Shown here: positions 416 through 20,393 of the stretch, piece after piece
Position numbering within the stretch: the stretch's first letter is position 1
Layout of the letters: every line of letters begins with the position of its first letter
Source of the DNA: Gammaproteobacteria bacterium
Lineage (GTDB): Bacteria > Pseudomonadota > Gammaproteobacteria > SZUA-152
Direction of reading: 5' to 3'
DNA length: 43,004 nucleotides
NCBI GenBank assembly: GCA_036507695.1
Contig: DATCIR010000220.1
Span: 1-43,004, forward strand
The notes under the pieces: generated by a model
Database searches by the model: none
Seen by the model: only the letters and a program-made list of their open reading frames with translations
What the model was told of the DNA's origin: nothing
Made by a program: the position numbers and the translations under genes

Positions 416-634
416 ATAGCGGCTTGCGCCGGTTTGCCGGTCTATAAGCAACCGGGAATGCATTAAAGCGTCCGGAGCGATAATTTTTTACCCTGCATAA
501 TGGGGTTAGTAGGGGGGCGATCTCATTTTGATTCACTTGGATCAACTGATTGGATTGGCTAAGGGCTTGGCTTTAGCTTTAATAGTCAGCATGCTCGCGC
601 GCAAAGTGAGTTGGACTGGCCGCTATTGAATTCT

Positions 635-2377
635 ATGCCTGTCACATCAAAAAAAATACGAATGGTGGGGAAGCCGCTTGGGTACTGGATAATCCTTGGC
701 TTACTCTGGGTGTGCTCAGAGGCTTGCTTCGCCCTGCCCCTGGTCCCCATGGCCTATAGCGGGAGTTTGGGGTATTACTACAGTTATATAAAAGCGGAAG
801 AGGCGGAATCGGAGACCGCGCTGCTCACCGCCACAATATCCGGCAACGGGTTTGTCTGGCAGCCCTGGTTTGTGACGCTGGGTATTGGACTGAGTATTGG
901 GTATTCCGATTCGAACTCTAACACCGGGGGTGGTAGTTCCTCGACCACGGGTTCGGGCAATCTTCAGTTTTCAGTTTTTCCGCAAAGCCGTTTTCCGTTT
1001 GTGCTGTCACTGAGCGTCACGGATAGCCGGTTGGAAAATACCGCCGCCGCGTTCACCGCCGATGATCATTTCATCAATTACCGGCTTTTTATGAGCCAGT
1101 CCTACTTCAGCGCCGGTGGTTCTGTGGCACGCTTGTCTTACGACCACAATGAGTTTGAATCGGACCGCTCAGACTCCAGCAGCGACAATATCAGCGCCAG
1201 CTTTTATTCTAAAACCAGGCGTCATCGTTACGGCGCCAACGCGAATTACTCAACGTCGGAGCGGTCGAATTCCGATTTAAAGCCCGAGAATTCGCTCCTG
1301 GAATTTCAGCACGATTATTCAACCGGATCGGATATGTCGGTAAGCTCGCTGGCCAGTTATACGGAAAATGACAGCGGTGTTGGCGGGGACGCCGGTGTTT
1401 TTCAAATTACCCAGGCCAACAGTGTGTTCTCCTGGCGTCCCATCGATCGTCCTTATACGCTTTCCGGCGGCGCCCGAATCGCCACATCGGAAAGCGGCGG
1501 CGGCGATAAGACGGATAACCTGGCCACGAATATCGGCGCCAATTACCGCCTGACACGCTCGTTGAATGTTCTGGCGCTGGCAACGATTAGCGCCACGGAT
1601 ACCGATACCACGCAAACAGTAACCGATACGGAAAGCGTGACTGTGAATTATTCGTCGCTGCAATACTTTGTCGGCGGATTCAGCTGGAATTGGAACGCGG
1701 GAGCCGGATTCAACAATTCCCATACCTCCGTCGACGATGATAGCGAGAGTGAGCAGAACATTGCTGGCAGCTTAGGACAAACACTAAACCGCAGCTGGGC
1801 CACGGGCCGGAATTCCACGATGAATATCGCGTTTTCGCAAAACGGCAGCGCGACTAAAAGCACGGATGCCGATGAGCCGGTGTATGGTTTGGGGAATGGC
1901 GTGAGCCTGGGCTGGAGCCGGCGCGGGATCAGGTCCAGTACGTACTCATCCCTGTCGCTATCGGATTCGCGCAGTTTCGGCGAAACCGATACCTCGTTTC
2001 AACAATTGCTCGGCCAGTTAACGCAGCGCAATGAGTTGTCGCGGGTAAGCTCATTGTCGGCCAACGTGCTGTTCCAGGCCAACCGGCTGGATAGCTCCGA
2101 GGCGGCATCGCCCGCTGAACCAAAATCCCTGGCGGCGAGCCTGACTTACCTTAATTCCCGGACTTTTGGCATCTTTCCGCTTCGATTCGGCGCCGAACTG
2201 GAGTACCACAAGCAGTTTGAGGACAATGGAATTAAAGGATCAGAAACGCTGGAATTAGAAAACCGGTTTGATTATCAAATCGGCCTGCTGACCACCAATA
2301 TGACGTTCCGTATAATGAACACGGTGGGGGGGGCAACCTCGGAATCGCTGACTTTTTCGATTACTCGAACATTTTGA
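635..2377 (+). CDS. Putative outer-membrane beta-barrel protein (porin-like), no haem motif
   Basis: The track ORF is 611..2377. ATG 635 gives a signal peptide, MPVTSKKIRMVGKPLGYWIILGLLWVCSEACFA. The body is rich in Ser/Thr/Asn/Gly/Tyr with alternating pattern. The C-terminus ...SLTFSITRTF ends in Phe, as in OMP barrels. There is no CXXCH. Confidence 0.6.
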   Translation: MPVTSKKIRMVGKPLGYWIILGLLWVCSEACFALPLVPMAYSGSLGYYYSYIKAEEAESETALLTATISGNGFVWQPWFVTLGIGLSIGYSDSNSNTGGGSSSTTGSGNLQFSVFPQSRFPFVLSLSVTDSRLENTAAAFTADDHFINYRLFMSQSYFSAGGSVARLSYDHNEFESDRSDSSSDNISASFYSKTRRHRYGANANYSTSERSNSDLKPENSLLEFQHDYSTGSDMSVSSLASYTENDSGVGGDAGVFQITQANSVFSWRPIDRPYTLSGGARIATSESGGGDKTDNLATNIGANYRLTRSLNVLALATISATDTDTTQTVTDTESVTVNYSSLQYFVGGFSWNWNAGAGFNNSHTSVDDDSESEQNIAGSLGQTLNRSWATGRNSTMNIAFSQNGSATKSTDADEPVYGLGNGVSLGWSRRGIRSSTYSSLSLSDSRSFGETDTSFQQLLGQLTQRNELSRVSSLSANVLFQANRLDSSEAASPAEPKSLAASLTYLNSRTFGIFPLRFGAELEYHKQFEDNGIKGSETLELENRFDYQIGLLTTNMTFRIMNTVGGATSESLTFSITRTF

Positions 2378-2424
2378 AACCAGGCGGTTCGTGTAGTATA
2401 GTCCAGGTTCCGATCAAGAAATAA

Positions 2425-2448
2425 AAGCACAAATATAAGCACAAATAT
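2425..2448. repeat. Tandem 12-mer AAGCACAAATAT x2 (a third degenerate copy follows)
   Basis: Read directly from the sequence, in the barrel-cytochrome intergenic region. Confidence 0.6.
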
Positions 2449-2535
2449 AAGCGCAAGGCGCGGAAAAAAATCGATTCACGACAACCTGCCATGTCAGGCC
2501 GGCATATCACATATACATATAGAGAGGAGGGCTCT

Positions 2536-2997
2536 ATGTTTCGATCCGTAATAATCGGGCTACTTAGTGTAGTTGCTGTACTTATCCTGCCGCCATCGGC
2601 AAAGGCGGAATACGCTGACGTGGTCATTAACAATTACGCGGACGCCGCCGGTATGCGGCCCGTGGTTTTTCCTCATTGGTATCATCGCATTCGCTTTCGC
2701 TGCAAGGTATGCCACGCCGATCTCGGTTTTGAATTTAAAGCCGGCGGCAACAAAATCACCATGGCGAAAATCATTGATGGCCAGTTCTGCGGGGCCTGCC
2801 ACAATGGTGAAATTTCTTGGTCGGTAGAGAACTGTGGAATGTGCCATTCCGGAATTCCAGGCACGCCGACATCCATACATGGCAGTACCGTTCAACGTCT
2901 CGTTGCGCCAACCTACAAAGCGCTTGAAGAAAAAGAAAAAGCAAAAGAAAAAGAAAAAGAAACAGAAAAACAAAAAGAAAAAGTGCCGCAAAAATGA
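2536..2997 (+). CDS. Trihaem c-type cytochrome (c3/c7-like) with Lys/Glu-rich C-terminal tail
   Basis: GGAGG lies 6 nt before ATG 2536 and a signal peptide follows. The haem motifs are CKVCH, CGACH and CGMCH. A FPHWYH motif precedes haem 1. The tail is EEKEKAKEKEKETEKQKEK. Confidence 0.8.
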   Translation: MFRSVIIGLLSVVAVLILPPSAKAEYADVVINNYADAAGMRPVVFPHWYHRIRFRCKVCHADLGFEFKAGGNKITMAKIIDGQFCGACHNGEISWSVENCGMCHSGIPGTPTSIHGSTVQRLVAPTYKALEEKEKAKEKEKETEKQKEKVPQK

Positions 2998-3021
2998 TGG
3001 CAAAGGAGAGGGGGAACTAAC

Positions 3022-3678
3022 ATGATTATGAAGAAATACTTGTTTATTATAACGGCGCTTCTATTGGCCGTTATGTTGCTGGGAACGGTGGCCACGGCGG
3101 AAGAAAAAAAACAGGAAGCCAAAAAACCCGCCGTGAGTTCGGCGAACGTTTTTAACCGCTTATTGAAAAAAGAAAAGACAAAGAATGCGGCGCCCGCGGA
3201 AGATGGCATCCATGACGTGGAAAATGACAACACCCATGCATTGCAGCCGCCGTTGATTGCCTATGAAGGATTGCCGACGACCGAGTTTGGCAACTATGTG
3301 GACTGGGTGAAAGCGCTGAACGATGGTTTATTAAAGCCGCGCTACGACCTGGCGGATCCCGCGGTGCAACCGCTGATTATGGACCTGGATATCGTCCGTG
3401 AAGTTAAAGCATCCTTGCCGGACGTGGTTTTCCCGCACAAACCGCATACGCAATGGCTGCATTGTTCAAACTGTCATCCAAAAATCTTCGCACCGCAGAA
3501 AAATGCGAACGTTATGAGCATGTCCGCTATCTTGCTGGGCCAGAAGTGCGGAGTTTGCCATGGCAAGGTTTCCTTTCCCGTGACAACGGCAACGTGTAAG
3601 AAGTGCCATTCGAAAGCGAAACCAGCCGACTGGACACCACCGCAAAGTGAAGCGAGCGTGAAAACACCCTGGCGTTAA
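3022..3678 (+). CDS. Trihaem c-type cytochrome, paralog of 5690..6280
   Basis: A signal peptide is present. The haem motifs are CSNCH, CGVCH and CKKCH. The blocks DGIHD...ALQPP...VDWVKALNDGL..P and FPHKPHTQWLHCSNCHP are shared with the 5690 gene. Confidence 0.85.
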   Translation: MIMKKYLFIITALLLAVMLLGTVATAEEKKQEAKKPAVSSANVFNRLLKKEKTKNAAPAEDGIHDVENDNTHALQPPLIAYEGLPTTEFGNYVDWVKALNDGLLKPRYDLADPAVQPLIMDLDIVREVKASLPDVVFPHKPHTQWLHCSNCHPKIFAPQKNANVMSMSAILLGQKCGVCHGKVSFPVTTATCKKCHSKAKPADWTPPQSEASVKTPWR

Positions 3679-3697
3679 GGGTTGATGTAACGTGGTC

Positions 3698-3745
3698 TGG
3701 GTTTGTGAATATGGGTTTGTGAATCTGGGTTTGTAAATTTGGGTT
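3698..3745. repeat. Tandem 14-mer TGGGTTTGTGAAT(A/C), about 3.5 copies
   Basis: Copies at 3698-3711, 3712-3725 and 3726-3739, with a partial fourth. The array starts about 20 nt after the stop of the cytochrome gene. Confidence 0.7.
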
Positions 3746-3793
3746 CACGGGGTGATTCATTTCGCATGGCATGGCGGTAGTAGTGATCTCTCG

Positions 3794-3827
3794 ACGGCGC
3801 GTGGCGGTTAATCGGGCCACGCGCCGT
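3794..3827 (+). terminator. Stem-loop with a perfect 12-bp stem, ACGGCGCGTGGC / GCCACGCGCCGT; possible terminator
   Basis: The inverted repeat has a 10-nt loop. The T-tail is weak (TGCTGTATT). Confidence 0.4.
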
Positions 3828-3946
3828 TGCTGTATTAGTGCTTAAGTTTTACTCCCATATTGAGTAATAAATTTGCATACCCTGGGTATTTGGTTTCTAA
3901 TTTAAGGCATTTCATCCACTATCGAATCTTTAACGAGAGCCAATTT

Positions 3947-5464
3947 ATGAATGCCATATCAAAAAAACTCCAGAGCATGGTATTGGTTTTTCTGTTTTTA
4001 GTATTCAGTTTGTCCGGGTGTGGTACGGCCGGGGTTCAAGAATCGGCCGGAGAAAAAACCGGCGCACCCACGGCTGCGGTAACAGCCGGGGCGAGTGCGG
4101 AAAAAGCGCCGGATCCGGATATAAAGCAAGGACCGGAAGAATCCGGCGTTGAGGTCATCGCCAACCAGGCGGGCAAGGATACCGGATTAACGGTTGCGCC
4201 GATTGCGGCGCGGGAACCCGCTTCCGCGCCAACCCAAGTGCCTGTGTCTTCCGGCCCGGATCATTTTGTCATTACGGTCGCCGCGAAAGATCAGACCCAT
4301 GCTCACTATGGCAAGGGACACGAGATGGCGTTTCTCGTGAACAACGAGCAAGGCAAGGATCTGGTTTTGGAACGCGGAAAAACCTACCGTTTTGATGTGG
4401 CGACGGATCCCATGCATGATGTTTATTTTTCCTTAAAGGAAATCGGCTGGGGCAGCACACCCTATTCAGAGGGAATAGAAGGCCAGTACACCTATAAGGG
4501 AACCATCACCATCACACCGACCGAAAAGACACCCGATGAGTTGTTTTACGCCTGCCGCAATCATCCCTATATGGGTGGAAAAATTCATGTTGTGAACGCC
4601 GGTGAAACCGTTGCACCGGCAAAGAAAGCAAGCACCGCGGCGGTTCCCGCGGCAGCGGTTCAGAATAAGCCGGTCAGCAAGGCGGACGCCAATCAGAAGT
4701 TGATGTTCGCCGACATGCTATTAAAATCAAAAAACAGTGAAACCATACTGAAAAGCAACAACAGCGAGGCGATCGCGCTGTATAAAAAAGCCGAAACCGG
4801 AGTGGGCTCGGCCAGGCAAAACCTGGAAGCCGGTAAAAATGCTCAAGCTTACCAGGAGGCTGAAAACTCCATTGCCCTGTTAAAGCAGTCCGCCGGCCTG
4901 GTGCCCGGCGAAAACGCCATGGAGCACCTGGAAGAACAAAATCGGGAATTGCTGGCATCCATTCACGGGTTTGAAGCGGCGCACAAGGATCACTATGAGA
5001 GAGTCGCCAAAAAGCAGGGTAAAGACGCCGCGGTTGGTTATGATAAAGCGGAAGTGCAAAAACTGATAAAATCCGCGGAAGAATTTACCAGCAAAGGCGA
5101 GCATGCGAAAGCCAACCGGGATTTGCACGAGGCGCAGCATAGTATCACGGTTGCACTGCAAAAAATGCTGCACAACCAGACGATTGTTTACGACTTGAAA
5201 TTCGAGTCGGCGCAGGAAGAATACGAGTACGAATTAAGCCGTTTCAAGGGTTATGAAGAACTGGTGCCGGTCGCAATTGAGCAACAAAATCCCGCCGCAG
5301 GTCCGCGGCAGTTAATGGAATCGTTCGTTAAAAAGGGGCAGGATTTGCGGGATCGCGCGATAGAAGCCGCGGCAGACCGGGACTTACCGACCGCAATCGC
5401 CATGCTGCACGATGCGACCAATGATGTGCGCCGGGCATTGCGGATGATCGGTGTAACGCAGTAA
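3947..5464 (+). CDS. Lipoprotein with a cupredoxin (type-1 copper) domain and a long alpha-helical C-terminal region
   Basis: The lipobox is LSGC, using ATG 3947. Candidate Cu ligands are DPMHD and FYACRNHPYMGGKIHV (C-x2-H-x2-M, amicyanin-like spacing). The C-terminal ~270 aa are rich in A/E/K/Q. Confidence 0.65.
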   Translation: MNAISKKLQSMVLVFLFLVFSLSGCGTAGVQESAGEKTGAPTAAVTAGASAEKAPDPDIKQGPEESGVEVIANQAGKDTGLTVAPIAAREPASAPTQVPVSSGPDHFVITVAAKDQTHAHYGKGHEMAFLVNNEQGKDLVLERGKTYRFDVATDPMHDVYFSLKEIGWGSTPYSEGIEGQYTYKGTITITPTEKTPDELFYACRNHPYMGGKIHVVNAGETVAPAKKASTAAVPAAAVQNKPVSKADANQKLMFADMLLKSKNSETILKSNNSEAIALYKKAETGVGSARQNLEAGKNAQAYQEAENSIALLKQSAGLVPGENAMEHLEEQNRELLASIHGFEAAHKDHYERVAKKQGKDAAVGYDKAEVQKLIKSAEEFTSKGEHAKANRDLHEAQHSITVALQKMLHNQTIVYDLKFESAQEEYEYELSRFKGYEELVPVAIEQQNPAAGPRQLMESFVKKGQDLRDRAIEAAADRDLPTAIAMLHDATNDVRRALRMIGVTQ

Positions 5465-5521
5465 CCGGTTGGGTTGCGCGGCCTGAGTAGCCGCGCTGGC
5501 TTTACTTTATATCAAGTAGCT

Positions 5522-5604
5522 CTACTTTGTTACTTTAGTTTATGCTTATGAACAATCCCGCGCGGGAGGCGGTATGCATGCCGCCATTTAAAGTAACAAA
5601 GTAG
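5522..5604. repeat. Perfect 16-bp inverted repeat, CTACTTTGTTACTTTA / TAAAGTAACAAAGTAG, around a 51-nt spacer
   Basis: Arms at 5522-5537 and 5589-5604. It lies between the cupredoxin gene and the next cytochrome gene. A GC hairpin at 5476-5496 precedes it. Confidence 0.6.
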
Positions 5605-5689
5605 AAGTAGACGACAGTCCAAAGGTCGGTCATTAGTCATCAGTCATTACAGAGTATTGATAAAACGGGAAACACGGGACCGGGGTTTT

Positions 5690-6280
5690 ATGCGTAAAAA
5701 AATGCTTGCTGCTTTCACTATAAGGAATCGATCCGGAAAATCCGCCGTGCTGTTGCTCCTGCTGGTGCTTGCTATCGGCGCGGGATCGGTCGCGGCCGTG
5801 GAAGGCGGCCGTCATTTCCAGTTGCATGGCGATGCGGTGGCGGTTGACAAGGATGGCATTCATGATCCATCCAATGACGCCGTAAAAGCCTTGCAGCCGC
5901 CGGTGGAAGCCATGAAGGATTTCCCGCGTGATGGGCGCGGCGTTGTCAACTGGGTGGAAACGTTAAATGGCGGCCTGATTCAACCGCGCACCGGGGTGAA
6001 GGGCGAAGAAAAAATGCATTCGGTGGATTTTGATGTGATTTTTAAAAACACCGCTTCCATGCCCTATGTCCGGTTCCCTCATTTGCCGCATACGCAATGG
6101 CTCACCTGCAAGAACTGTCATCCGGCCATTTTTCTGCCGCAACGCGGCGGTAATTTCGTCACCATGGCCGCTATCATAGAAGGCGAGTATTGCGGTGTTT
6201 GCCACGGTAAAGTCGCGTTTCCTCCCCTGGAGTGTAATCGATGCCACAGTGTCTCGCGCGAAAGCGTCGGTTTACGCTAG
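5690..6280 (+). CDS. Trihaem c-type cytochrome, paralog of 3022..3678
   Basis: ATG 5690 gives MRKKMLAAF... followed by a signal peptide. The haem motifs are CKNCH, CGVCH and CNRCH. The FPHLPHTQWLTCKNCHP block is conserved. Confidence 0.85.
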   Translation: MRKKMLAAFTIRNRSGKSAVLLLLLVLAIGAGSVAAVEGGRHFQLHGDAVAVDKDGIHDPSNDAVKALQPPVEAMKDFPRDGRGVVNWVETLNGGLIQPRTGVKGEEKMHSVDFDVIFKNTASMPYVRFPHLPHTQWLTCKNCHPAIFLPQRGGNFVTMAAIIEGEYCGVCHGKVAFPPLECNRCHSVSRESVGLR

Positions 6281-7305
6281 TCCTGCCGGTTTTACTCGCC
6301 TGCGCCGTGCAATTCGGCTGCTCCATGGCGGAGATGGAGCGGATTGCCATGGAAAACCGCCTGGCGGATCTTAAAACCCAGCCGGGCGGCGCCGCCTCCA
6401 AATCGCGGTTTCTCGCGTTTGAAGCCGTCATTAAAGGCGGCATGAAGGAGGAAGCGGGGCTAACGGGCGCATTCAGGCGGCTGATGATTGGCCCCGACCG
6501 GGAGATCCAGTTTCTTACGCCGGTCGCGGTGGGTGGTGTCGACAACTACCTGTATGTCGCCGATTCGGGTTTGCGCATCGTGTTCCGTTATGATCTGGTG
6601 AATAACACCATTGAAACACTGGGTAACGCAGGCACCCAGTTTGCCGGGGAAATGGGCAACATGTATGTGGCGCGGGACCGGAGCTTTTATATCGCCGATC
6701 CAGCCGGCAAGCAGGTGCTGCATTTCGACGAGCTGGGCAATCTTATCGCGGCGTTTCAGGATCTGGCCAACTTGTCGCGGCCCTTGGATGTTATCTACGA
6801 TGAAACAACCGGTGATCTCCTGGTCGCGGATGGCGCTTTCAGTCATATCGTGGTGTTTAACAAATCCGGTAGAGCGATACGCACCATTGGTCAGCGCGGC
6901 ACCGGACCCGGGCGTTTCCGCGCGATCACGGCCATGACCATGAGCGATGATGGACTTTATGTCTTAGACAGGCTCGAGCTGCCGGTGCAGGTGATCACTA
7001 TCACCGGCGATTACAAGTATGCCTTTGGCGAATCACACCATAGTTTTCCCAGCGCGATCGCCGTGAATGCGGACGGCGTGGTGTATGTGGCCGATAAATC
7101 GGATAACGCGATTCGTATTTATCAGGACGCGGAATTATTATCGGTATTCGGCGGCACCGGTTCCGCACCCGGACGCTTTCGGGAAATAACCAGTATGTGG
7201 ATCAATAATGATTTATTGTACATTGCCGATAGTATGAACCGGCGCGTGCAGGTTTTGCGCATGACCGTTGAAGAGGTAGCCGCGCCGGCGCCGTCAAACC
7301 CATGA
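6241..7305 (+). CDS. NHL-repeat beta-propeller lipoprotein
   Basis: The lipobox is QFGC. Repeated motifs are YVAD/YIAD/LVAD...G.G.G.F..P (for example GTGPGRFRAITAM and GSAPGRFREITSM). The start overlaps the upstream gene by 40 nt. Confidence 0.75.
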   Translation: MPQCLARKRRFTLVLPVLLACAVQFGCSMAEMERIAMENRLADLKTQPGGAASKSRFLAFEAVIKGGMKEEAGLTGAFRRLMIGPDREIQFLTPVAVGGVDNYLYVADSGLRIVFRYDLVNNTIETLGNAGTQFAGEMGNMYVARDRSFYIADPAGKQVLHFDELGNLIAAFQDLANLSRPLDVIYDETTGDLLVADGAFSHIVVFNKSGRAIRTIGQRGTGPGRFRAITAMTMSDDGLYVLDRLELPVQVITITGDYKYAFGESHHSFPSAIAVNADGVVYVADKSDNAIRIYQDAELLSVFGGTGSAPGRFREITSMWINNDLLYIADSMNRRVQVLRMTVEEVAAPAPSNP

Positions 7306-8423
7306 AACCCATCACTGAATCACTGAACCGTTGTGCGCTTTACCCGGGTTTGGTGCTTGCACTGTTATTAACGGCCTGCGCCAGCCGGGAATACCGCGTG
7401 GATTACGAAGTGCAAGCGTCCGATGCCCAGGTCTGGCCGGCGCCGCCGGAAATACCCCGCTTCCGTTATGTCGGCACGCTGACCGGCGAGGATAACGTCA
7501 AGCCAGTGGAAGAAGGCAAGCGCTTCGGTGACTATGTCACCGACTTCTTCAGATGGGTGGTGGGATTGGTTGGCCCCAATCCGATACCCTTGGTATTGCA
7601 GCGGCCGCAGTCCGGTGTGATGGATGATAACGGCCGGCTGTACATTACCGATGTGAGCCGTCAGTCAATCATGGTGTTTGACTTGCAAAAAGGCACATTA
7701 ACCGAGTGGGAGCAAGCGACGCCTAACACCGGTTTCCTGACACCGGTGGGCATTACGCTGGGGCCCGCGGGCAGTATCCTGGTGGTGGATGCGGATCTGA
7801 AACAGGTGCTGCAGCTCGATGCCACCGGAAAGCCTGTCAAGGCGTTCGGCGCTGACACCTTCAAGCGCCCCACGGGCATCGCCCGGGATCCGGTCAAAGG
7901 CCGGATTTATGTTGCCGATACCCACGCGCACGATATAAAAGTTTTTGATGATAACGGCGCCCTCCTTAATGTTTTTGGCGAATATGGTACGGACGGCGGT
8001 GAATTTAATAGCCCCGCCCACCTGTCATTTGCGGAGGGGCTGCTCTATGTAACCGATACATTCAATACCCGGGTGCAGGTTTTAAGAGATTCTGGCGAAT
8101 TTAGACGTGAATTCGGTAAAAGAGGCTTGTATGTCGGGGATCTGGTCCGGCCCAAGGGGGTCGCCACCGATAGCGAGGGCAATATCTATGTCATTGAGTC
8201 GTTTCACGATCATTTGCTAGTATATAGTGCTAACGGGGAATTTTTGTTGCCGATTGGCGGGACGGGCGCGGGTATCGGACAGTTCTATTTGCCTTCCGGG
8301 GTGTGGACGGATAAAAACGACCGCATCTATATTGCGGATATGTTCAATGGGCGGGTGGTCATATTGCAATACCTGGGTGGGCGCTATGCCCGTGGCGCGG
8401 TTCAAAACGCGGTTCAGCCATAG
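7302..8423 (+). CDS. NHL-repeat beta-propeller lipoprotein
   Basis: ATGA start/stop overlap with the previous gene. The lipobox is LTAC. Repeats include YITD, YVAD, YVTD, YVIE and YIAD, plus GEFNSPAH and GQFYLPSG. Confidence 0.75.
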   Translation: MKPITESLNRCALYPGLVLALLLTACASREYRVDYEVQASDAQVWPAPPEIPRFRYVGTLTGEDNVKPVEEGKRFGDYVTDFFRWVVGLVGPNPIPLVLQRPQSGVMDDNGRLYITDVSRQSIMVFDLQKGTLTEWEQATPNTGFLTPVGITLGPAGSILVVDADLKQVLQLDATGKPVKAFGADTFKRPTGIARDPVKGRIYVADTHAHDIKVFDDNGALLNVFGEYGTDGGEFNSPAHLSFAEGLLYVTDTFNTRVQVLRDSGEFRREFGKRGLYVGDLVRPKGVATDSEGNIYVIESFHDHLLVYSANGEFLLPIGGTGAGIGQFYLPSGVWTDKNDRIYIADMFNGRVVILQYLGGRYARGAVQNAVQP

Positions 8424-8462
8424 TAGCGGCCGGTGCGGTTCAAAAAATGGTACAAGGTGAGC

Positions 8463-11267
8463 ATGCGAGTTAACAACGTTATAGTGACGGGGGTTATCGG
8501 ACTGGTGGTGCTACTAATCTGGCACGCTAATGCCAATGCTGACCGTGTTTCCGATATTCAAAACACCAAACATAATTTCTCCGCATTGCCTACGGATCCG
8601 AATTTCAATGTGCAACGGACTGTCAGGGCAACGCAGGAAGTCCAGATCTGCGTGTTTTGCCATACACCGCATGGCGCGGAAGCATCCGTCGGCCCCTTGT
8701 GGAACCGGCGGTTATCGACCGCGAATTATCAAACCTATGTGAGCGGTTCGCTGGACGCGGGACGGCCCGGGCTGGATCCTAGCAGTGCGGCGCAGGCGCT
8801 GCAGCAACCTAACGGGGTATCCAAACTTTGTTTGTCCTGCCATGACGGCACCCTGGCGATCGGCGCCGTCAATGTGTTGTGGGGACGCTTTACGGATCGC
8901 GTTGGCACGACCGCGGAGATTGCCATGCAGGGCACCGGCACCGGCGGCACGATGCCCGCGGGAGAGGGTACGCGAACCGGCTTTACCCGCAATCTCGGCA
9001 TCAACCTTACCAACGACCATCCGATATCGGTTCGTTACGATGCCACGCTGGCGACGGTCGATGGCGAAATGCGCTTACCCAGCCAGGTCGACGATATTGT
9101 CGTGCGCAGCGTTGATCCCTGGCCTACCAACCAGGGACAGCGTACCCGCACCGAATATATCCATCTGGAACCGGATCCGGGCACCACCACGGGCGGTTTG
9201 GTGCAATGCAACAGTTGTCACGATCCGCATATTCGCAGCACCGATCCCACCGAAAACATCAAGTTCCTGCGCCTGAACCGGTTCCAGAAAGTTCAGCCCC
9301 AGCAAGGCCAGTTTAGCGCGGCCAATGATATTATTTGCCTGGCCTGCCATGACAAAGCGGGCTGGGTGGGCTCGGCGCACGCCCATCCGCAGGTGGCCGA
9401 TGAAACCTACACCACGGCCGCCGCCCAAGTGCGGGAGTTCCCCACCTCGGGGGATGGCACCCAAGTGTGGGAAAGCGCCTGCCTGGCCTGTCACGACGCC
9501 CATACCGTGGAAGGCTCGCGCCGCCTGCTGCGGGAAGGCACCGATGGCGGCGTCATTACTTCTTCATCCGGTTACCGCATTAAAACCGGTACCGGCCAGG
9601 CGGCCATTGAAGAAACCTGTTATGCCTGTCATTCCGCGGACGGCGCCACCTTGGTGGGCCAGGGAACCACTACCAATTTCCAGGTGCCCGATATCAAGAC
9701 CGATTTCACCACCATGCGCATTCACATGCCGATTACTAATGCCGATCAAGCGGCGGGACAGGAACGGCATGATATTGGTTCACCCAATCCGGACGTTACC
9801 GATCCAAATGGTTTGGGAAAGGATTTTATTGAGAGTCCGGTTAATATGGGGCGCGGCAATTTAACCAACCGTCACGCGGAATGCACCGATTGCCATAACC
9901 CGCACCGGGTTACTAAAAAACGTCTGTTTAATGCGGACCCTTTTGCGCTCGACCCGGCCGGTACCCACAATCATACCCAGCCGCATAATAACCTGGCGTC
10001 GGGCGTGTTGCGCGGCACCTGGGGCGTGGAACCAGTTTATGGTTCAACAACCTTTATGAGTATACCGAACAGCTTTGACATCAAGCGCGGTAATCCGGGC
10101 ATCAACGCCAGCACGGCGGTTAACGCGGCCTATGTCACCCGCGAGTACCAAGTGTGCCTGAAATGTCATTCCAATTATGGCTACAGTGACGCGAACAATA
10201 ATTTTGGCACCAGCCCGCCGCGGCCCCAGTTGGGCTCGTTCAGCGGCGGCACCCCACCGGGAACCAATGACCTGGACAATTATACCAACCAGGCCATGGA
10301 ATATCAGTCGCCAACCGATCATCTGGGTGAAGGAACCTCCGGTTCTCCCACGGGCGCGGCGGCGGCGTACGCCACCAATAACCACCGTTCCTGGCATCCG
10401 GTGATGCGTGAAACCGGCCGCGATAGCGCCGAGCGCGGGGGCGCCAATGTGAACAATTGGCGCACGCCGTTCCAGACGCTAGGCACCCAAACCATGTATT
10501 GCACCGATTGCCATGGTTCGGATACCAATACCGCGGATGGCGTGGCGCCGCGTCCCAAGGGGAGCGGAACCAGCGAAGATGGGTTCCCCTGGGGACCGCA
10601 CGGCTCGATTAATGATTTCCTGTTGAAAGGCCAATGGAGCGGCAACCGTCTTACCAATACCGATGGTACGGGTAATCTGGGCACCGGTGGCGCGGGTTCG
10701 GAAAACCATTTGTGTTTTAAATGCCATGAATACAATCAATACGGCGACGCCGGCGGTGGCGTCACGGCGCAGAACAGCGGTTTTCGCACACCCAATGCCT
10801 GCATGGGTATGGGCGCCGGCTGTATGGGTGGCGGCGGAATGGGAATGGGCGCGATGGGCCCGAACAATAACTTGCACATTTACCATACCGCGCTGGTGCA
10901 AAACTGGCGTTGTAATTTGTGTCATGTCGCTATTCCCCATGGCTGGAAAAACAAGGCCTTCCTGGTGAACTTGAATGACGTGGGTCCCGAAGGTAATCAA
11001 CCGGCGGGCACGCAATTGCGCAATGGCGCTGCTGGCGGCGGTGGCGGCGGCATGGGTGGCGGTGGTGGCATGGGCGGTGGTGGCGCTGCGGTGGACGCGT
11101 TTACCCTCGGCCCTTATTACAATCGCGCGGCGTTAAAAGTGGTTAACTTTGCGGTGAGTGGCCAGTGGCTGCCGAATGATTGCGGTTCCGCCGGCGCGCC
11201 GGGAAATGGAGCGGTTGGCGTTGCCTGGATGTTCAATAGCAGTGAAGCGTGTAACAATTTGCCCTAA
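8463..11267 (+). CDS. Undecahaem c-type cytochrome (11 CXXCH) with two Gly/Met-rich low-complexity inserts
   Basis: AAGGTGA precedes ATG 8463 and an N-terminal TM/signal follows. The motifs are CVFCH, CLSCH, CNSCH, CLACH x2, CYACH, CTDCH x2, CLKCH, CFKCH and CNLCH. The N-terminal pattern is HNFS...CVFCHTPH...PLWNR...CLSCHDGT. Confidence 0.9.
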   Translation: MRVNNVIVTGVIGLVVLLIWHANANADRVSDIQNTKHNFSALPTDPNFNVQRTVRATQEVQICVFCHTPHGAEASVGPLWNRRLSTANYQTYVSGSLDAGRPGLDPSSAAQALQQPNGVSKLCLSCHDGTLAIGAVNVLWGRFTDRVGTTAEIAMQGTGTGGTMPAGEGTRTGFTRNLGINLTNDHPISVRYDATLATVDGEMRLPSQVDDIVVRSVDPWPTNQGQRTRTEYIHLEPDPGTTTGGLVQCNSCHDPHIRSTDPTENIKFLRLNRFQKVQPQQGQFSAANDIICLACHDKAGWVGSAHAHPQVADETYTTAAAQVREFPTSGDGTQVWESACLACHDAHTVEGSRRLLREGTDGGVITSSSGYRIKTGTGQAAIEETCYACHSADGATLVGQGTTTNFQVPDIKTDFTTMRIHMPITNADQAAGQERHDIGSPNPDVTDPNGLGKDFIESPVNMGRGNLTNRHAECTDCHNPHRVTKKRLFNADPFALDPAGTHNHTQPHNNLASGVLRGTWGVEPVYGSTTFMSIPNSFDIKRGNPGINASTAVNAAYVTREYQVCLKCHSNYGYSDANNNFGTSPPRPQLGSFSGGTPPGTNDLDNYTNQAMEYQSPTDHLGEGTSGSPTGAAAAYATNNHRSWHPVMRETGRDSAERGGANVNNWRTPFQTLGTQTMYCTDCHGSDTNTADGVAPRPKGSGTSEDGFPWGPHGSINDFLLKGQWSGNRLTNTDGTGNLGTGGAGSENHLCFKCHEYNQYGDAGGGVTAQNSGFRTPNACMGMGAGCMGGGGMGMGAMGPNNNLHIYHTALVQNWRCNLCHVAIPHGWKNKAFLVNLNDVGPEGNQPAGTQLRNGAAGGGGGGMGGGGGMGGGGAAVDAFTLGPYYNRAALKVVNFAVSGQWLPNDCGSAGAPGNGAVGVAWMFNSSEACNNLP

Positions 11268-11518
11268 GCTTTAAACGGCAGCCGTTGATCTGAAAATACC
11301 GAAAATAGCACGTCGATCCGGCAGCAACTACCGTCCGTCTGTTTAGCCCGCGGTTCTATGGTTAGAGGTTGGAACGCAGTTTTTTTAACGGCACGTGTTT
11401 ATTAATTTATAAACACTGCCGGTGAATTGCGCCGGGAACACGCTGGGTGTGCCGGCCTTTATCAAACCGGATTCCGCTTCCCGCGATGTACCGCGGGACT
11501 TTATAGAGTGGGTGTAGC

Positions 11519-13702
11519 ATGGGCTTTATTTTTTTTAACCGGCGGGCGCAGCGCTTGCTGGGATTATTTTTACTGGCCACAGTAACAAGCGCTCAGGCCG
11601 GTGTGCCCCGGTTCGCCTACGTAACCAATCCCTATGATCATACGATTTCCGGGTATTTTCTCGACGCAGAAAGCCGGATGTTCTTTAACGGTATGGTGTA
11701 TACCGGGGACAAATTTCCCGCGGCATTGATCATTCACCCAAACGGGAAATTTATTTACAGCGCCTCACGCACCGTGGATACCGCGCTCATTTATAAAATC
11801 GATCCGCGGACAGGCTGGTTAACGGAAACACCGGGTCCGCGCTTGCCTACCCGGCTGCGCTCGCCGTTCTCGTACGGATTTCACCCCTCGGGTAAATTTC
11901 TTTATGTCGCGGGACGCGGCGGCGGGGTTGCGGCGTTTACGGTTGATGAAGCAAGCGGCGCACTGGGTTATGTGCCGGGTTCCCCCTATAAAGCCGGTGA
12001 CCGCACCCGGTCTTTGACCGTACATCCGTCCGGCAAGTTTGTCTATGCGTCCAACGCCTACACCAATAATATTTCCGCCTACCGCGTTAACCAGTCGACC
12101 GGGGTTTTAACGGAGTTGCCTGATTCGCCGTTCTTCGCCGGTGAAGCCGGCCCCTTTGCCAGTACGATTGCAATGCTGCCGGATGCAACCGACAACAAAG
12201 GCGGCATTCCTTATTACACCGCGGCGCACCCGTCGGGCAAATTCGTCTATGTGGTAAACTGGATGGCCGCCAGTGTGTCGATATTCCGGGTGGATGAAAC
12301 GTCGGGGGATTTGTCCCTCATCGGCAAGCCCACAGCAACCGGAGATGCGCCCTATGCGGTGGCGGTGCACCCGTCCGGAAACTATGTGTTAGTGAGTACC
12401 TGGGGCGGGCATGACATTTATGTCTATACCGTTAATCTGCAAACCGGGGAATTGGAGCCTGTACCAGGCTCGCCCTTCGGCACCCTGGGATTTAAGCCCG
12501 TTGATATCAAGTTCAACAGCGATGGCAGCTTGGTGTTTGTGGCCAACAAAGACTCGAATAATGTGTCGATCTTTGACATGAATGTCACTACGGGTAAGTT
12601 AGCGCTGAAAGATTTCGCCATGACCCGGGCAGGCGCCCTGGATGCTGAACTGGTGACGGTGGAACAGCCGGTCACCCTGCTGCCGCATTATGCGTTTGTC
12701 CTTGATCAAGTGTCTGAATCATTAATCAGCTACCGCATCGATATTGCCACGGGTGACTTCAAGGAAGCGGCGCGCGCCAAGACGGGTAAACAGCCGGTAG
12801 CGGTGGCGCAGGATCCGCTGAACCGGTTTGTATATGTGGCCAACGCCGGTTCCAACAATGTGTCCGCGTTTGCCATTGATAGCGCTAGCGGGGCGCTAAC
12901 CGAGGTTGAGGGTTCACCGTATGCGGTGGGTGAAAATCCGCGCTCCATCGCCGTCGACGCCAATGGCTGGTACCTGTATACCTTAAACCACGGCAGCCAG
13001 GACATGTCGGTATTTTTAATTCACGTGAAAAAGGGCCAGTTGGCGGAAGCGCAAGGCTCGCCGGTGCCGATCAAAAAACAGCTGCTGAACCTGGCAACCG
13101 ACCCGACGTCGCGGTTTGTATACATTAACAGCCGCGACGGCAAATCCGTAAGCGTATATCGTTATCGGCAGGCGGTAACACCGTCGATCTTTGAAATTTC
13201 CGAGCATGGTTCGCCGTTTGTGTTTGATACGGTTCCCAATGATCTGGTGGTTGATCCCACCGGCCGGTTCGCCCTGGTGCTGCAAGGTGAAGCGCAACAA
13301 GTATCCATGTTTAACGTGCATGTGGCAACCGGCGCCCTGGAACCCATCAAGGAAAACCTGCAGCCCTACAAGATCGCTGGCAAACACGCTGTGCAAGCGG
13401 CGTTTCATCCCAGCGGCAAGTTTGCCTATGTGTTAAATGCCGGGAGCAAGGATATCGTGCAACTTAAACTGGACCGGCTTAACGGCAAGGTAAGTGAAAT
13501 CGACAAACCGGCCGCCATCCAGGGCAAGCCCTTGGCGTTCACCATTGATCCCTCCGGCCAGTATCTTTATGTGCTCAATGAAAAGGAAAAAGGTTTGGGT
13601 AAATACCGGATTGATAAAACCACGGGAAAGTTGACCAGGCTCGGTGAAGTTATGTTGCCGTATTCACCGGCGGCGCTGGTGATTTCGCGGGAATTTCAAT
13701 GA
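11519..13702 (+). CDS. Exported tandem lactonase-type (7-bladed, YVTN-like) beta-propeller protein
   Basis: A signal peptide is present. More than 12 repeats follow the pattern HPSGKF(V/L)YV.N....I..(Y/F). Confidence 0.7.
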   Translation: MGFIFFNRRAQRLLGLFLLATVTSAQAGVPRFAYVTNPYDHTISGYFLDAESRMFFNGMVYTGDKFPAALIIHPNGKFIYSASRTVDTALIYKIDPRTGWLTETPGPRLPTRLRSPFSYGFHPSGKFLYVAGRGGGVAAFTVDEASGALGYVPGSPYKAGDRTRSLTVHPSGKFVYASNAYTNNISAYRVNQSTGVLTELPDSPFFAGEAGPFASTIAMLPDATDNKGGIPYYTAAHPSGKFVYVVNWMAASVSIFRVDETSGDLSLIGKPTATGDAPYAVAVHPSGNYVLVSTWGGHDIYVYTVNLQTGELEPVPGSPFGTLGFKPVDIKFNSDGSLVFVANKDSNNVSIFDMNVTTGKLALKDFAMTRAGALDAELVTVEQPVTLLPHYAFVLDQVSESLISYRIDIATGDFKEAARAKTGKQPVAVAQDPLNRFVYVANAGSNNVSAFAIDSASGALTEVEGSPYAVGENPRSIAVDANGWYLYTLNHGSQDMSVFLIHVKKGQLAEAQGSPVPIKKQLLNLATDPTSRFVYINSRDGKSVSVYRYRQAVTPSIFEISEHGSPFVFDTVPNDLVVDPTGRFALVLQGEAQQVSMFNVHVATGALEPIKENLQPYKIAGKHAVQAAFHPSGKFAYVLNAGSKDIVQLKLDRLNGKVSEIDKPAAIQGKPLAFTIDPSGQYLYVLNEKEKGLGKYRIDKTTGKLTRLGEVMLPYSPAALVISREFQ

Positions 13703-13769
13703 GATTGATGTTCGCGAATTTGACGCTGTCAGGACGCGTGTGCGTTGCCGGTGCCTGCGTGTACTACAA

Positions 13770-14867
13770 ATGTTAAATTTTCTAAGAAAATTCGCATCCT
13801 TAAAAATCGCCCTGCTTGGAATGGCGCTGCTGGCGATTGGCGCCATGCTCAGTTATGGTAATCCGCTGGGCACGCCGGTCTGGGTGCTGGTGGCGCCGAT
13901 GGCGTTGCTGGCCGTTAACCTGGTCGCCGCCATTACCACCAATCCCCGCATCAATCAGCAGCCCGGGCTGTTGGTGTTTCATGTGGCGTTATTGTTGTTG
14001 CTGTTGCTCGCCACCGTTGGGCGGCTCACGCACCTGGATGCGCACTTGGAACTGGTGGTTGGAACCGGGTTTGAAGCCGATAAATTACTGGAAATCAACG
14101 CCGGGCCTTTGCATCCGGGCAGTTTTGACAGCGTGCACTTTGTGCAAGGACCATATACCGTTGAATACTCACCCGGCATGCAGCGCGGCTTGACGCACAG
14201 CCACGTTAAGGTAAAAACCGCTGCCGGTGCATGGGAAGGCCGCATCGTGGGTGACGACCGGCCGCTGGTCATGGACGGTTACCGGTTCTATACCACGTTC
14301 AACAAGGGGTTTACCTCGGTGCTTACATGGCTGCCGGCCGGCGGGGCGCCGGTAACGGGCAGCGTCAATATGCCTTCGTATCCGTTGTTTGAATACAAGC
14401 AGGACAACCGTTGGACTCCGCACGGCAGTAACACGGAAATCAAATTTTGGCTGCAACTGAAAACCGCGATGAATGCAGAGGCGCACTGGGTATTGGATGC
14501 CGCAAGCTCCAGCGGGGTATTGATTGTTACCTCCGGTGATAAGCGCTACGAGGTCCGGCTGGGTGAGTTCGTGGATTTGCCGCAGGGCCGGTTACGTTTT
14601 GAGGCGTTAACCATGTGGATGGGTTACCGCCTGTTTTACGACCCGACCATTCAATGGCTGTTTTTTGTGGCCATTATGGGTATCCTGGGATTGACACACT
14701 ATTTTTGGAAGAAAATAAATTTGCAGCCCTGGATGGATGAAAAACCGGATACAATCGCCGAACAAGCGGGGAAACCATTGGACGGCATTGGCAGTCCAAG
14801 CAGCGGTAAACCGTCCGGGAACAATGCTCCGGTAACCACCGCCTATCTAACAGGGGAGAAACATTGA
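13770..14867 (+). CDS. ccsB: ResB/CcsB-like System II cytochrome c biogenesis protein (short form)
   Basis: ATG 13770 gives MLNFLRKFASLKIALLGMALLAIG, a ResB-like N-terminus. TM helices flank a periplasmic domain. The gene is directly coupled to ccsA downstream. Confidence 0.6.
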   Translation: MLNFLRKFASLKIALLGMALLAIGAMLSYGNPLGTPVWVLVAPMALLAVNLVAAITTNPRINQQPGLLVFHVALLLLLLLATVGRLTHLDAHLELVVGTGFEADKLLEINAGPLHPGSFDSVHFVQGPYTVEYSPGMQRGLTHSHVKVKTAAGAWEGRIVGDDRPLVMDGYRFYTTFNKGFTSVLTWLPAGGAPVTGSVNMPSYPLFEYKQDNRWTPHGSNTEIKFWLQLKTAMNAEAHWVLDAASSSGVLIVTSGDKRYEVRLGEFVDLPQGRLRFEALTMWMGYRLFYDPTIQWLFFVAIMGILGLTHYFWKKINLQPWMDEKPDTIAEQAGKPLDGIGSPSSGKPSGNNAPVTTAYLTGEKH

Positions 14868-16481: not shown

Positions 16482-16539
16482 TGCAAGATTAAAACTAACG
16501 GTTATGCTGCGTATTGAAAATTAATGTACCGAAAAATTA

Positions 16540-17097
16540 ATGTCCCGAATCCAAAAACCAACGATCGTAACGTTTCTAGTAGCTTTCGGCGTGCTGATGC
16601 TGGTGTCGGGCTGTCAGCAGCCGTTGCCGCCTCTCAAGATTCAACCGGGGCAAACCGTCACCCAGGCCTTGGATGTGCAGGATGTGACGGGCAAGGGCGC
16701 CAAGCTGTCCCTGGCAACCGGCAAGCTCCTGATCCTGAATGTGTGGGCGACCTGGTGTGGTCCGTGCCGTCATGAAATGCCCAGCCTGGACCGCCTGGCG
16801 CAAAAACTGGATACCAATCACTACGTGGTGGTGGGCTTGTCCGTGGATAGTGATGATCACCTGGTCCGGGAATTTCTGATTGAGCGCAAGGTCGGTTTTT
16901 CCAATTATCTGGATCCCACGATGGCGATTGCGACCCAGGTGTTCGGGATTCGCGCTTTTCCCTCGACCCTGGTGTTCGCGCCCGATGGACGGCTGTTGGA
17001 AGTGATCGAAGGCTGGCGGGAGTGGGATAACCTGCAGATGATTAACCGGCTTACCAACTTAAATCCCCAAGCCACTCAAAGTCTGTCAGCAGGCTAA
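16540..17097 (+). CDS. TlpA/ResA-like thiol:disulfide oxidoreductase lipoprotein
   Basis: The lipobox is VSGC. The thioredoxin active site is WATWCGPC. A cis-Pro region, RAFPSTLVF, is present. Confidence 0.8.
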   Translation: MSRIQKPTIVTFLVAFGVLMLVSGCQQPLPPLKIQPGQTVTQALDVQDVTGKGAKLSLATGKLLILNVWATWCGPCRHEMPSLDRLAQKLDTNHYVVVGLSVDSDDHLVREFLIERKVGFSNYLDPTMAIATQVFGIRAFPSTLVFAPDGRLLEVIEGWREWDNLQMINRLTNLNPQATQSLSAG

Positions 17098-18551: not shown

Positions 18552-18563
18552 CAATTGAATTCA

Positions 18564-20368: not shown

Positions 20369-20393
20369 GATTCAATGAGGGAGTGAGCAAGCC

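Follow-up and report, generated by a model that had tools for sequence, protein, structure and literature searches.

The undecahaem electron transfer (uet) cluster was named in Candidatus Tenderia (Eddie 2022; bioRxiv 10.1101/2022.05.06.490989; mSphere 7:e00223-22). It comprises uetABCDEFGHIJ, ccsAB, nrfG and batABD, with a system I ccm operon in the vicinity. Expression of the uet cytochromes in Ca. T. electrophaga differs with electrode potential (bioRxiv 10.1101/2022.05.06.490989). The other name of the cluster, occ, comes from Ca. Dechloromonas occultata (Szeinbaum 2020; bioRxiv 10.1101/695007). The occ cluster contains 19 genes with 10 cytochromes, several of them small, an extracellular undecahaem OccP of ~920 aa, 6-bladed NHL proteins, a PPIase and a CcoN-like OccS, and homologues 40 to 60% identical were reported as widespread (10.1101/695007). 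Gallionella and Leptothrix are further reported carriers of the uet/occ cluster. The proposed direction of electron flow differs by host, being uptake in Tenderia and Gallionella and reduction in Dechloromonas, where Mn(III) was the proposed acceptor (10.1101/695007). MtrCAB, MtoAB and PioAB have in common with uet the logic of a large outer-membrane barrel combined with multihaem cytochromes. The Cyc2-rusticyanin-Cyc1 chain of Acidithiobacillus ferrooxidans also combines a barrel, a cupredoxin and c-type cytochromes and is a high-potential uptake chain.

The window analysed here is an entire contig of 43,004 bases. The first-pass annotation had described nine tightly grouped, co-directional genes as an uncharacterised module. 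All nine ORFs were present on the plus strand where it had placed them (Table 1), and start codons were refined with gene calls from near-identical contigs. The locus is the already named uet/occ cluster and not an undescribed module, as the same genes occur in the same order in uet (10.1101/2022.05.06.490989), the cluster also named occ (10.1101/695007). The order in the window is uetC-D-E-F-G-H-I-J, followed by ccsB-ccsA, a TPR gene and a thioredoxin gene. This matches the published list of uetA-J, ccsAB and nrfG, and was identical in the Ca. Tenderia sp. loci L012 and L014. The top match of each window product was at the syntenic position in L012, with identities of 26% (C), 72% (D), 68% (E), 34% (F), 62% (G), 40% (H), 51% (I) and 49% (J), and of 58, 60 and 51% for the downstream ResB, CcsA and TPR products. 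Components and order are thus shared with the Tenderia cluster from UetC to UetJ, CcsBA and TPR, as is the ccm operon nearby. Compared by description, the Occ proteins share with the window the undecahaem cytochrome, the NHL proteins and the small cytochromes. Relative to the Tenderia cluster, the window alone has a 727-aa double propeller gene between uetJ and ccsB. This gene beside the 11-haem cytochrome is the sole feature of the locus without an earlier description. Taken as a whole, the locus is very probably a uet/occ member that is a candidate outer-membrane electron conduit, with uptake favoured and a lineage-specific double propeller partnering UetJ.

Table 1. Features of the window, with positions counted from its first base.
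Feature	Position	Strand	Evidence
Repeat copy at contig end	1..97	.	95% identical to window 27830-27926
uetC, 571-aa outer-membrane beta-barrel with signal peptide	662..2377	+	AF2 model; best PDB match MtrB
uetD, c7-type trihaem cytochrome, 153 aa	2536..2997	+	3 CXXCH; TIGR04257 6e-18; PF14522 9e-15
uetE, c7-type trihaem cytochrome with N-terminal extension, 218 aa	3022..3678	+	3 CXXCH; TIGR04257 5e-17
uetF, 505-aa lipoprotein	3947..5464	+	Lipobox LSGC; cupredoxin fold; conserved ligand set
uetG, c7-type trihaem cytochrome, 196 aa	5690..6280	+	3 CXXCH; TIGR04257 5.5e-17
uetH, NHL-repeat beta-propeller lipoprotein	6241..7305	+	PF01436 3.9e-12; lipobox match
uetI, NHL-repeat beta-propeller lipoprotein	7302..8423	+	PF01436 7e-26; lipobox LTAC
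uetJ (= occP), undecahaem c-type cytochrome with signal peptide	8463..11267	+	11 CXXCH
Accessory gene, secreted 727-aa double propeller	11519..13702	+	PF10282 1.7e-81, both halves
ccsB (ResB-like) and ccsA, system II cytochrome c maturation	13740..15709	+	PF05140; PF01578
NrfG-like TPR protein and thioredoxin-like lipoprotein	15759..17097	+	TPR families; AhpC/Redoxin
ccmA, B, C, E, F, G, H, I, system I cytochrome c maturation	17185..24824	+	Pfam

The C-to-J order was kept in 44 of the 81 fetched loci. Its carriers were Gamma-, Beta- and Alphaproteobacteria, Magnetococcales, Nitrospinota and Myxococcota MAGs, and UetJ relatives were encoded in at least 587 species genomes. Because the same order recurs in so many loci and lineages, the arrangement goes far beyond what chance would give. 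Neighbouring frames overlap at G/H (40 nt), H/I (4 nt) and ResB/CcsA. A fortuitous neighbourhood of unrelated secreted proteins was rejected on this conserved synteny and these overlaps as extremely improbable, and no supporting points were found for it.

The boundaries first drawn, 611 to 13702, cut through the unit. Downstream it continues into ccsBA, the TPR and thioredoxin genes and ccmA-I, while uetA and uetB lie beyond the contig end. A 99.6% identical contig (L106) aligned with the window from position 98 onward only, and its upstream part contained uetB and the C-terminus of uetA directly preceding uetC. The terminal repeat of the window stands where that contig has the 3' end of uetB. 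Since both genes lie directly upstream in so similar a contig, their absence from the window is a contig-end effect. On the other side, uetJ was followed by ResB in 62 of the 81 loci and ResB-CcsA-TPR was kept in 46; ccsBA is conserved as part of the module. The TPR and thioredoxin-like genes were syntenic across related loci. Between the TPR gene and ccm, the window lacks the bat genes counted in the Tenderia module and has the thioredoxin-like lipoprotein gene instead. The ccm operon matched ABC_tran, CcmB, Cytochrom_C_asm, CcmE, CcmF_C, Redoxin, CcmH and CycH, and ccmD was not identified there by Pfam. No energy-metabolism genes indicating lifestyle were found within the 43,004 nt.

Export signals and localisation were judged with a PROSITE-style lipobox regex and by eye for hydrophobic segments. 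As had been noted from the sequence, all nine products carry a putative signal peptide or lipobox: each has a hydrophobic segment at its N-terminus, and UetF, UetH and UetI have the lipobox.

The AF2 model of UetC had a pLDDT of 88.4 and 28 long strands, the same number as predicted for UetC of Tenderia (bioRxiv 10.1101/2022.05.06.490989). The top structural match in the PDB was MtrB of the Mtr complex (6r2q_B, E 2.6e-8). The first-pass annotation had staked its reading on the 635..2377 product being a barrel, and this is the predicted structure. It had also described the barrel as ending in Phe and as distinct from MtrB/PioB and Cyc2. The C-terminal Phe was conserved in at least 90% of sequences. 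No Pfam or NCBIfam family matched UetC in the profile search, therefore neither did the MtrB/PioB model, and CXXCH counting found no haem motif, whereas Cyc2 has a fused haem. The syntenic L012 gene was matched at E 6e-33. In comparison with MtrCAB, MtoAB and PioAB, the barrel has 28 strands against 26 and belongs to no Pfam family, and no MtrA/DmsE-type decahaem accompanies it (TIGR03508 28 bits, cut-off 192, in the locus). The relays in the window are instead c7-type trihaems and a cupredoxin, and the NHL propellers are extra.

The three small cytochromes UetD, UetE and UetG are built on one scaffold, F-P-H-x2-H-x5-CxxCH ... CGxCH ... CxxCH, as first described, and each matched both TIGR04257 and PF14522. 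UetJ is a 944-aa ORF, shortened to 934 aa by the refined start, and has two Gly/Met-rich variable inserts. Exactly 11 CXXCH motifs were counted, the number originally given, and all were invariant in 21 homologues. UetJ matched PF09699, PF14522 and PF22113. The last of these, MtrC/MtrF domain II/IV, scored 36.8 bits against a cut-off of 30, and gives UetJ a segment like that of the Mtr complex (6R2Q). The window cytochromes are multihaem, in which they differ from the A. ferrooxidans chain.

UetF had no family match in the domain profile search and was hence tested by structure prediction; sequence-only profile matches were weak (laccase 0.0047, pseudoazurin 0.1). Besides a disordered linker, the protein has a cupredoxin domain and, at the C-terminus, a domain that is all-helical; the AF2 domains had pLDDT >90. 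The leading Foldseek PDB matches of the beta-sandwich were cupredoxins, with rusticyanin first (E 5e-4). The putative type-1 Cu ligands His157/Cys203/His206/Met209 were invariant in 29 homologues, so the fold, the ligand set and the lipobox bear out the proposed type-1 copper lipoprotein. Unlike rusticyanin, UetF is a lipoprotein (505 aa) that also has a helical domain, and the two are only 19 to 20% identical. The two NHL lipoproteins were likewise recovered, with PF01436 and a lipobox in both. The cupredoxin and NHL proteins had been thought to be partners outside characterised conduits. They are standard uet components, and only the double propeller is unpublished.

The locus would encode a conduit that carries electrons across the outer membrane, probably inward, a reading based on 'omics and architecture. 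UetC would form the 28-strand outer-membrane pore, and at least one multihaem cytochrome (UetJ, the tetrahaem UetA or both) would thread it or dock on it to give a trans-membrane haem wire, though at ~100 kDa UetJ may be too large to pass through the barrel. The trihaem UetD, UetE and UetG and the membrane-anchored UetF would relay electrons in the periplasm, with UetH and UetI as scaffolds, and the cytochromes would be matured by the dedicated CcsBA system. This retains the conduit proposed in the first-pass annotation, as the MtrB-like barrel free of haem motifs is consistent with the published logic, but not its novelty or its extent. The favoured direction is uptake, in which Fe(II), a mineral or a cathode would be oxidised and the electrons passed into a high-potential chain leading to oxygen, because the cluster invariably includes a type-1 copper protein whose fold resembles that of rusticyanin. 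To our knowledge, no characterised metal-reducing conduit uses a cupredoxin. The same machinery could instead be respiratory and run outward: electrons would leave the quinone pool, and UetJ/OccP as terminal reductase would pass them to a high-potential acceptor, extracellular or soluble, for instance Mn(III)-ligand complexes. Metaproteomics detected Occ proteins including OccP in a Mn(III)-reducing enrichment in which Ca. Dechloromonas occultata was dominant, but that study had no causal test, and both its electron donor and its link to Mn(III) were uncertain (10.1101/695007). A Dechloromonas MAG (L048) has the syntenic cluster, Mto/Mtr-type conduits are described in the literature as reversible, and Mn(III) should be thermodynamically compatible with a high-potential cupredoxin. 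The closest relatives of the window genes are nevertheless in Tenderia-like Gammaproteobacteria, for which uptake is proposed, and together with the cupredoxin this makes outward flow unlikely here.

The double propeller consists of two lactonase-type 7-bladed propellers, and the PF10282 match spanning both halves agrees with its first description. It contains no Cys, and no His is invariant across homologues. Weak NCBIfam similarities, all far below family cut-offs, were seen to hydrazine synthase beta (1.2e-15), lactonase-type NosZ (1e-10) and quinohaemoprotein amine dehydrogenase beta (1.4e-6). Lactonase-type and related propellers do occur as subunits of periplasmic redox enzymes, and the localisation of the Uet proteins is a predicted one. 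The propellers, both NHL and lactonase-type, could then be catalytic or substrate-binding for a soluble substrate, with cytochromes and cupredoxin accepting the electrons and the barrel acting as a solute or substrate channel. The similarities reflect a shared fold only, and the protein shows no other obvious cofactor ligands. It is absent from most uet clusters and so cannot be the core activity. The 28 strands of UetC exceed those of MtrB, its top structural match, and lie far above those of ordinary solute porins, and UetJ has an MtrC/MtrF-type domain. A periplasmic enzyme of this kind is accordingly improbable.

The double propeller is a lineage-specific accessory outside the published uet cluster, and is most likely a structural or docking subunit. 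All 11 full-length copies with known context were directly 3' of a uetJ, among them those in L001, L003, L004 (two), L005 (two), L033 (two), L082 and L086, and none was found elsewhere among the fetched uet loci. In a tree the propeller-associated uetJ copies formed one gammaproteobacterial clade, so that UetJ may have gained this cofactor-less protein as a dedicated partner in that lineage. Among 1.84 billion proteins ~25 to 30 full-length representatives were present. The uetJ-propeller pair was tandemly duplicated in three loci.

Nine ORFs were found between positions 611 and 13702 of the window, all co-directional and on the plus strand. Genes called on two public, near-identical contigs served to refine several of the starts. 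A motif search counted three CXXCH motifs in each of the three small cytochromes, 11 in the large cytochrome UetJ and none in the barrel UetC. The scaffold F-P-H-x2-H-x5-CxxCH ... CGxCH ... CxxCH was present in UetD, UetE and UetG alike and all three were assigned to the c7-type trihaem domains TIGR04257 and PF14522 (NCBIfam, Pfam). Pfam predicted NHL repeats (PF01436) in the putative lipoproteins UetH and UetI and a 7-bladed lactonase domain covering both halves of the double propeller (E 1.7e-81). UetJ contained paired-CXXCH, c7 and MtrC/MtrF domain II/IV domains (Pfam/NCBIfam). A lipobox was found in three products using a PROSITE-style pattern and a hydrophobic N-terminal segment in all nine. 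The gene orientation, haem counts, NHL and lactonase assignments and putative export signals proposed in the first-pass annotation were reproduced.

Genes of the putative electron-transfer cluster
Feature	Position	Strand	Remark
uetC, barrel	662-2377	+	refined start
uetD, trihaem cytochrome	2536-2997	+	refined
uetE, trihaem cytochrome	3022-3678	+	refined
uetF, lipoprotein	3947-5464	+	refined
uetG, trihaem cytochrome	5690-6280	+	refined
uetH, NHL protein	6241-7305	+	refined
uetI, NHL protein	7302-8423	+	refined
uetJ, large cytochrome	8463-11267	+	refined
double propeller	11519-13702	+	refined

The same annotation had described these genes as a candidate uncharacterised module. This did not hold, as the arrangement is that of the published uet/occ cluster. 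Eddie et al. named uetABCDEFGHIJ in Candidatus Tenderia electrophaga (bioRxiv 10.1101/2022.05.06.490989; mSphere 2022), listing UetA as a tetrahaem cytochrome, UetB as a PPIase, UetC as a predicted 28-strand beta-barrel, UetD, UetE and UetG as c7-type trihaems, UetF as a cupredoxin, UetH and UetI as NHL proteins and UetJ as an undecahaem cytochrome. Earlier, Szeinbaum et al. reported from Ca. Dechloromonas occultata a cluster named occ, whose products include the undecahaem OccP, a PPIase and NHL proteins (bioRxiv 10.1101/695007). Hoover et al. found Uet in six Gallionella genomes (PMC10734462), and UetJ and its porin were reported from Leptothrix in a 2026 paper (PMC13386937).

UetJ relatives were found in at least 587 species genomes by a scan with the UetJ alignment, one genome being searched per species. 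The best 80 of these were fetched with their flanks and, together with locus L001, made up the 81 loci against which all window products were compared by tblastn. Among these 81 loci (the best 80 of at least 587, plus L001) the order C-D-E-(F)-G-(H)-I-J was conserved in 44, A-B-C-D-E in 37, uetJ followed by ResB in 62 and ResB-CcsA-TPR in 46. Two of the 81 loci were from Ca. Tenderia sp. MAGs. Every window product matched one of these (L012) at the syntenic position, with identities of 26% for UetC (E 6e-33), 72% for UetD, 68% for UetE, 34% for UetF, 62% for UetG, 40% for UetH, 51% for UetI, 49% for UetJ, 58% for ResB, 60% for CcsA and 51% for the TPR protein. The trihaem genes are interleaved with uetF in the order D-E-F-G and the two NHL genes lie immediately 5' of uetJ, both as in Uet/Occ. 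On every core feature tested the locus belongs to the Uet/Occ cluster. The finding is genuine and coherent, yet the system already carries a name and has been surveyed in several papers.

L001 (GCA_975966025.1, CDLTTD010000114.1) belongs to an assembly labelled cyanobacterium Kaarinaea lacus. The UetF homologues of this assembly (P0126, P0168, P0172, P0208, P0253, P0286) are 48-65% identical to that of the window. The several different uet loci in one assembly indicate that it is mixed or contaminated, and not that cyanobacteria carry a uet cluster.

Forty-five homologues of UetC were found. An AlphaFold2 model built from an alignment of 29 sequences had a mean pLDDT of 88.4 and contained 28 long antiparallel strands. 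In the PDB, MtrB from the Mtr complex matched best (6r2q_B, E 2.6e-8, TM 0.41); LptD and TonB-dependent barrels came next. UetC ends in ...TRTF, with a conservation of 90% or more for the final Phe. The product had been proposed to be a transmembrane barrel, and a 28-strand barrel with MtrB as its closest structure is what was predicted. No Pfam or NCBIfam match was obtained for UetC at E values up to 0.1.

The locus would work like the porin-cytochrome conduits of the Mtr/Pio type, yet it stands outside that family: UetC matches no Pfam or NCBIfam family, the locus has no MtrA/DmsE-type decahaem gene and the strand number differs. MtrB is a 26-strand barrel while UetC is modelled with 28 strands and would be slightly wider; at a TM of 0.41 the resemblance between the two is structural only. 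In Cyc2 an N-terminal haem domain is fused to the barrel. UetC contains no CXXCH, CX3CH or CX4CH motif, in agreement with the earlier statement that the barrel is not haem-fused, and the locus is not Cyc2 for this reason.

No Pfam or NCBIfam match was obtained for UetF and its only phmmer match in the PDB was an antibody chain. Profile searches were weak (laccase 0.0047, pseudoazurin 0.1-0.19). In the AlphaFold2 model a lipoprotein signal and a linker of approximately 70 disordered residues precede a beta-sandwich at residues 100-220 and an all-helical domain at residues 245-500. Both the beta-sandwich and the helical domain were modelled with confidence. Cupredoxins led the PDB fold search: rusticyanin ranked highest, and CueO, plastocyanin and amicyanin came next. 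After the weak sequence-only matches it was this fold search that settled the cupredoxin question. His157, the residues Cys203, His206 and Met209 of a C-x2-H-x2-M loop, and the lipobox Cys25 were invariant in 29 UetF homologues. Another UetF (P0167) is 99% identical to the window's. The predicted cupredoxin fold and the invariant H/C/H/M ligand set support UetF being a type-1 copper lipoprotein, as first annotated.

All 11 CXXCH motifs of UetJ were invariant in 21 homologues. UetJ was 49% identical to the L012 protein over residues 16-944. Residues 253-358 matched the Pfam MtrC/MtrF domain II/IV model (36.8 bits) and this was the only such segment. UetJ differs from the OmcA/MtrC/UndA outer-surface cytochromes in having no full-length family match, with no hit to the OmcA/MtrC model TIGR03507. 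Against TIGR03508 (MtrA/DmsE-type decahaem) UetJ scored 28 bits, the cut-off being 192.

The 944-aa uetJ ORF (8433-11267) includes Gly/Met(/Cys)-rich low-complexity inserts at residues ~795-810 and 865-885, for example GGGGGGMGGGGGMGGGG. Homologues differ greatly in the length of these inserts, and many lack the second. The inserts are a further difference from the Tenderia module. The inserts may be analogous to Met-rich metal-binding loops. Orphan uetJ paralogues outside any uet cluster were seen in L007, L009, L039, L044, L056, L060, L063, L076 and L078. Three of these (L039, L063, L076) are separate loci in a single Thiohalomonadales MAG. In the sister-clade loci L007 and L009 the genes after the orphan uetJ encode an amidohydrolase, RNase T and a TPP enzyme. 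As these are unrelated housekeeping genes they are uninformative on the partners of UetJ.

The published Tenderia cluster has no double propeller while the window has one of 727 aa encoded 3' of uetJ. Neither of the two cluster papers searched for 'lactonase', the uet (10.1101/2022.05.06.490989) and the occ (10.1101/695007) preprints, mentions it. Among the 81 genome loci (the best 80 of at least 587, plus L001) it was found in L001, L003, L004, L005 and L033 only, each time directly 3' of a uetJ. Tandem uetJ-propeller pairs were present in L004, L005 and L033, with intergenic gaps down to 4-37 nt. L005 and L033 hold two pairs each; L004 also has two, plus a partial uetJ where the fetched stretch ends. 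The tandem copies have diverged. A metagenome scan was queried with a 2-sequence propeller alignment, as the 8-sequence alignment offered no stretch that was conserved enough. Two further orthologues were found (L082 and L086), both directly after G-H-I-J. The remaining 21 metagenome loci were generic lactonase-type repeats with no uetJ nearby. In a neighbor-joining tree of 84 UetJ sequences all the copies preceding a propeller formed a single clade adjoining the Tenderia group. Across 1.84 billion representatives searched exhaustively with HMMER, the repeat alone occurred in thousands of other proteins and only approximately 25-30 full-length collinear relatives of ~700-750 aa were found.

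This clade-specific pairing of UetJ with a double propeller is the modest new element of the locus. The propeller has a signal peptide and lacks Cys, and none of its His residues is invariant in eight orthologues, which favors a scaffold or docking role over a redox or catalytic one. It is possible, if on balance somewhat improbable, that UetJ in one gammaproteobacterial clade near Tenderia gained a dedicated cofactor-less propeller partner and that the two act as one unit. This would be a new Uet surface sub-module that may dock the haem wire to a mineral, electrode, partner cell or S-layer, or may array UetJ. The pairing could inform structural studies of the way in which the undecahaem is retained at the cell surface.

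Uet/Occ is one of few candidate extracellular electron-transfer systems besides Mtr, PCC3 and Cyc2. With UetJ relatives in at least 587 species genomes it is far wider spread than the founding papers reported, and the carriers include the culturable Sphaerotilus, Hydrogenophaga and Aromatoleum. The analysis shows predicted folds, cofactor motifs, export signals, a conserved gene order and linkage between the propeller and UetJ. In the proposed mechanism UetC would be the trans-outer-membrane sheath and may house or dock UetJ, UetA or both. UetD, UetE and UetG together with UetF would carry electrons across the periplasm, UetH and UetI would be the scaffold of the complex and CcsBA would mature the cytochromes. 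Electron uptake is the favored direction. The invariant putative type-1 copper protein with its rusticyanin-like fold suggests a high-potential chain as in Acidithiobacillus. The nearest relatives are also Tenderia-like lineages, and the uet cytochromes of Ca. T. electrophaga respond to cathode potential (10.1101/2022.05.06.490989). Outward transfer to Mn(III) is possible on the basis of the occ work (10.1101/695007). The first-pass annotation had called any function inference only and this stands, the literature on Uet/Occ extracellular electron transfer consisting of 'omics correlations. That gap in function is already recognised in the literature and the window contributes one more member of the cluster, not a new category.

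uetA and uetB were not in the window, which is a complete contig of 43,004 bases. Bases 1-97 share 95% identity with an intergenic repeat at 27830-27926 (BLAST). This copy at the contig end lies 564 nt before uetC, and homology to L001, the closest full locus, starts only at position 592. The public contig L106 has an identical UetC and 99.6% identity over window positions 98-7341. Directly upstream of uetC it carries a 372-aa SurA/rotamase gene, which is uetB, and it also carries a cytochrome C-terminus (...GSALCLTCHIK*) matching UetA of L001. A real truncation of uetA and uetB was rejected on the strength of this contig, and their absence is probably an effect of the contig end and not a feature of the system. 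The contig start at the repeat may reflect an assembly break or else the insertion of a small mobile or REP-like element at the uetB-uetC junction in some of the population. L105, another near-identical contig, likewise begins in the ~97-nt repeat, and a short inverted piece of the repeat was seen (54-79 versus 27828-27803).

No Rfam match was obtained in window positions 1-700 at E values up to 1. Group II intron RNA domains D1-D4 were predicted at 42201-42509 on the plus strand, near the other contig end (RF02005, 80.8 bits, E 4e-21). Positions 1-150 were considered as the 3' end of this intron and rejected, as BLAST showed the short intergenic repeat instead. On the strand opposite to the intron is a 215-aa ORF (42002-42649) with no Pfam match.

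Downstream of the propeller are ResB-like and CcsA genes (PF05140, PF01578) followed by genes for a TPR protein and a thioredoxin-like lipoprotein and by ccmA, B, C, E, F, G, H and I. ccmD was not identified in this operon. The unit had been drawn as ending at 13702. It runs past this position, as the cluster continues into the ccsBA, TPR, thioredoxin-like and ccm genes. In Tenderia uetJ is followed by ccsAB, nrfG, batABD and the system I ccm operon, so that the type-I maturation operon sits after the bat genes that succeed the uet module (10.1101/2022.05.06.490989). The window differs in that bat genes are missing at this place: neither a vWA nor a BatD domain was found between the TPR gene and ccmA, where the thioredoxin-like gene lies instead. 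The absence of batABD is not disqualifying because these genes are a peripheral part and are also missing from many syntenic loci. A promoter and terminator scan gave background levels. Positions 13740-24824 hold two complete cytochrome c maturation systems back to back, first system II (ResB-like/CcsA, TPR and thioredoxin-like genes) and then system I (ccm).

Just after ccmI are two beta-propeller ORFs that overlap (25231-26415 and 26292-27689) and contain 'two-component regulator propeller' repeats; a frameshift may have divided a single gene into these two. A 466-aa Kelch-repeat protein is encoded at 27955-29355. The region 35979-40584 has a GC content of 0.46-0.49 compared to ~0.54 and contains two tyrosine-recombinase/integrase genes, a Y2-type transposase and two ORFs with no family match. 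It is probably an integrated mobile element.
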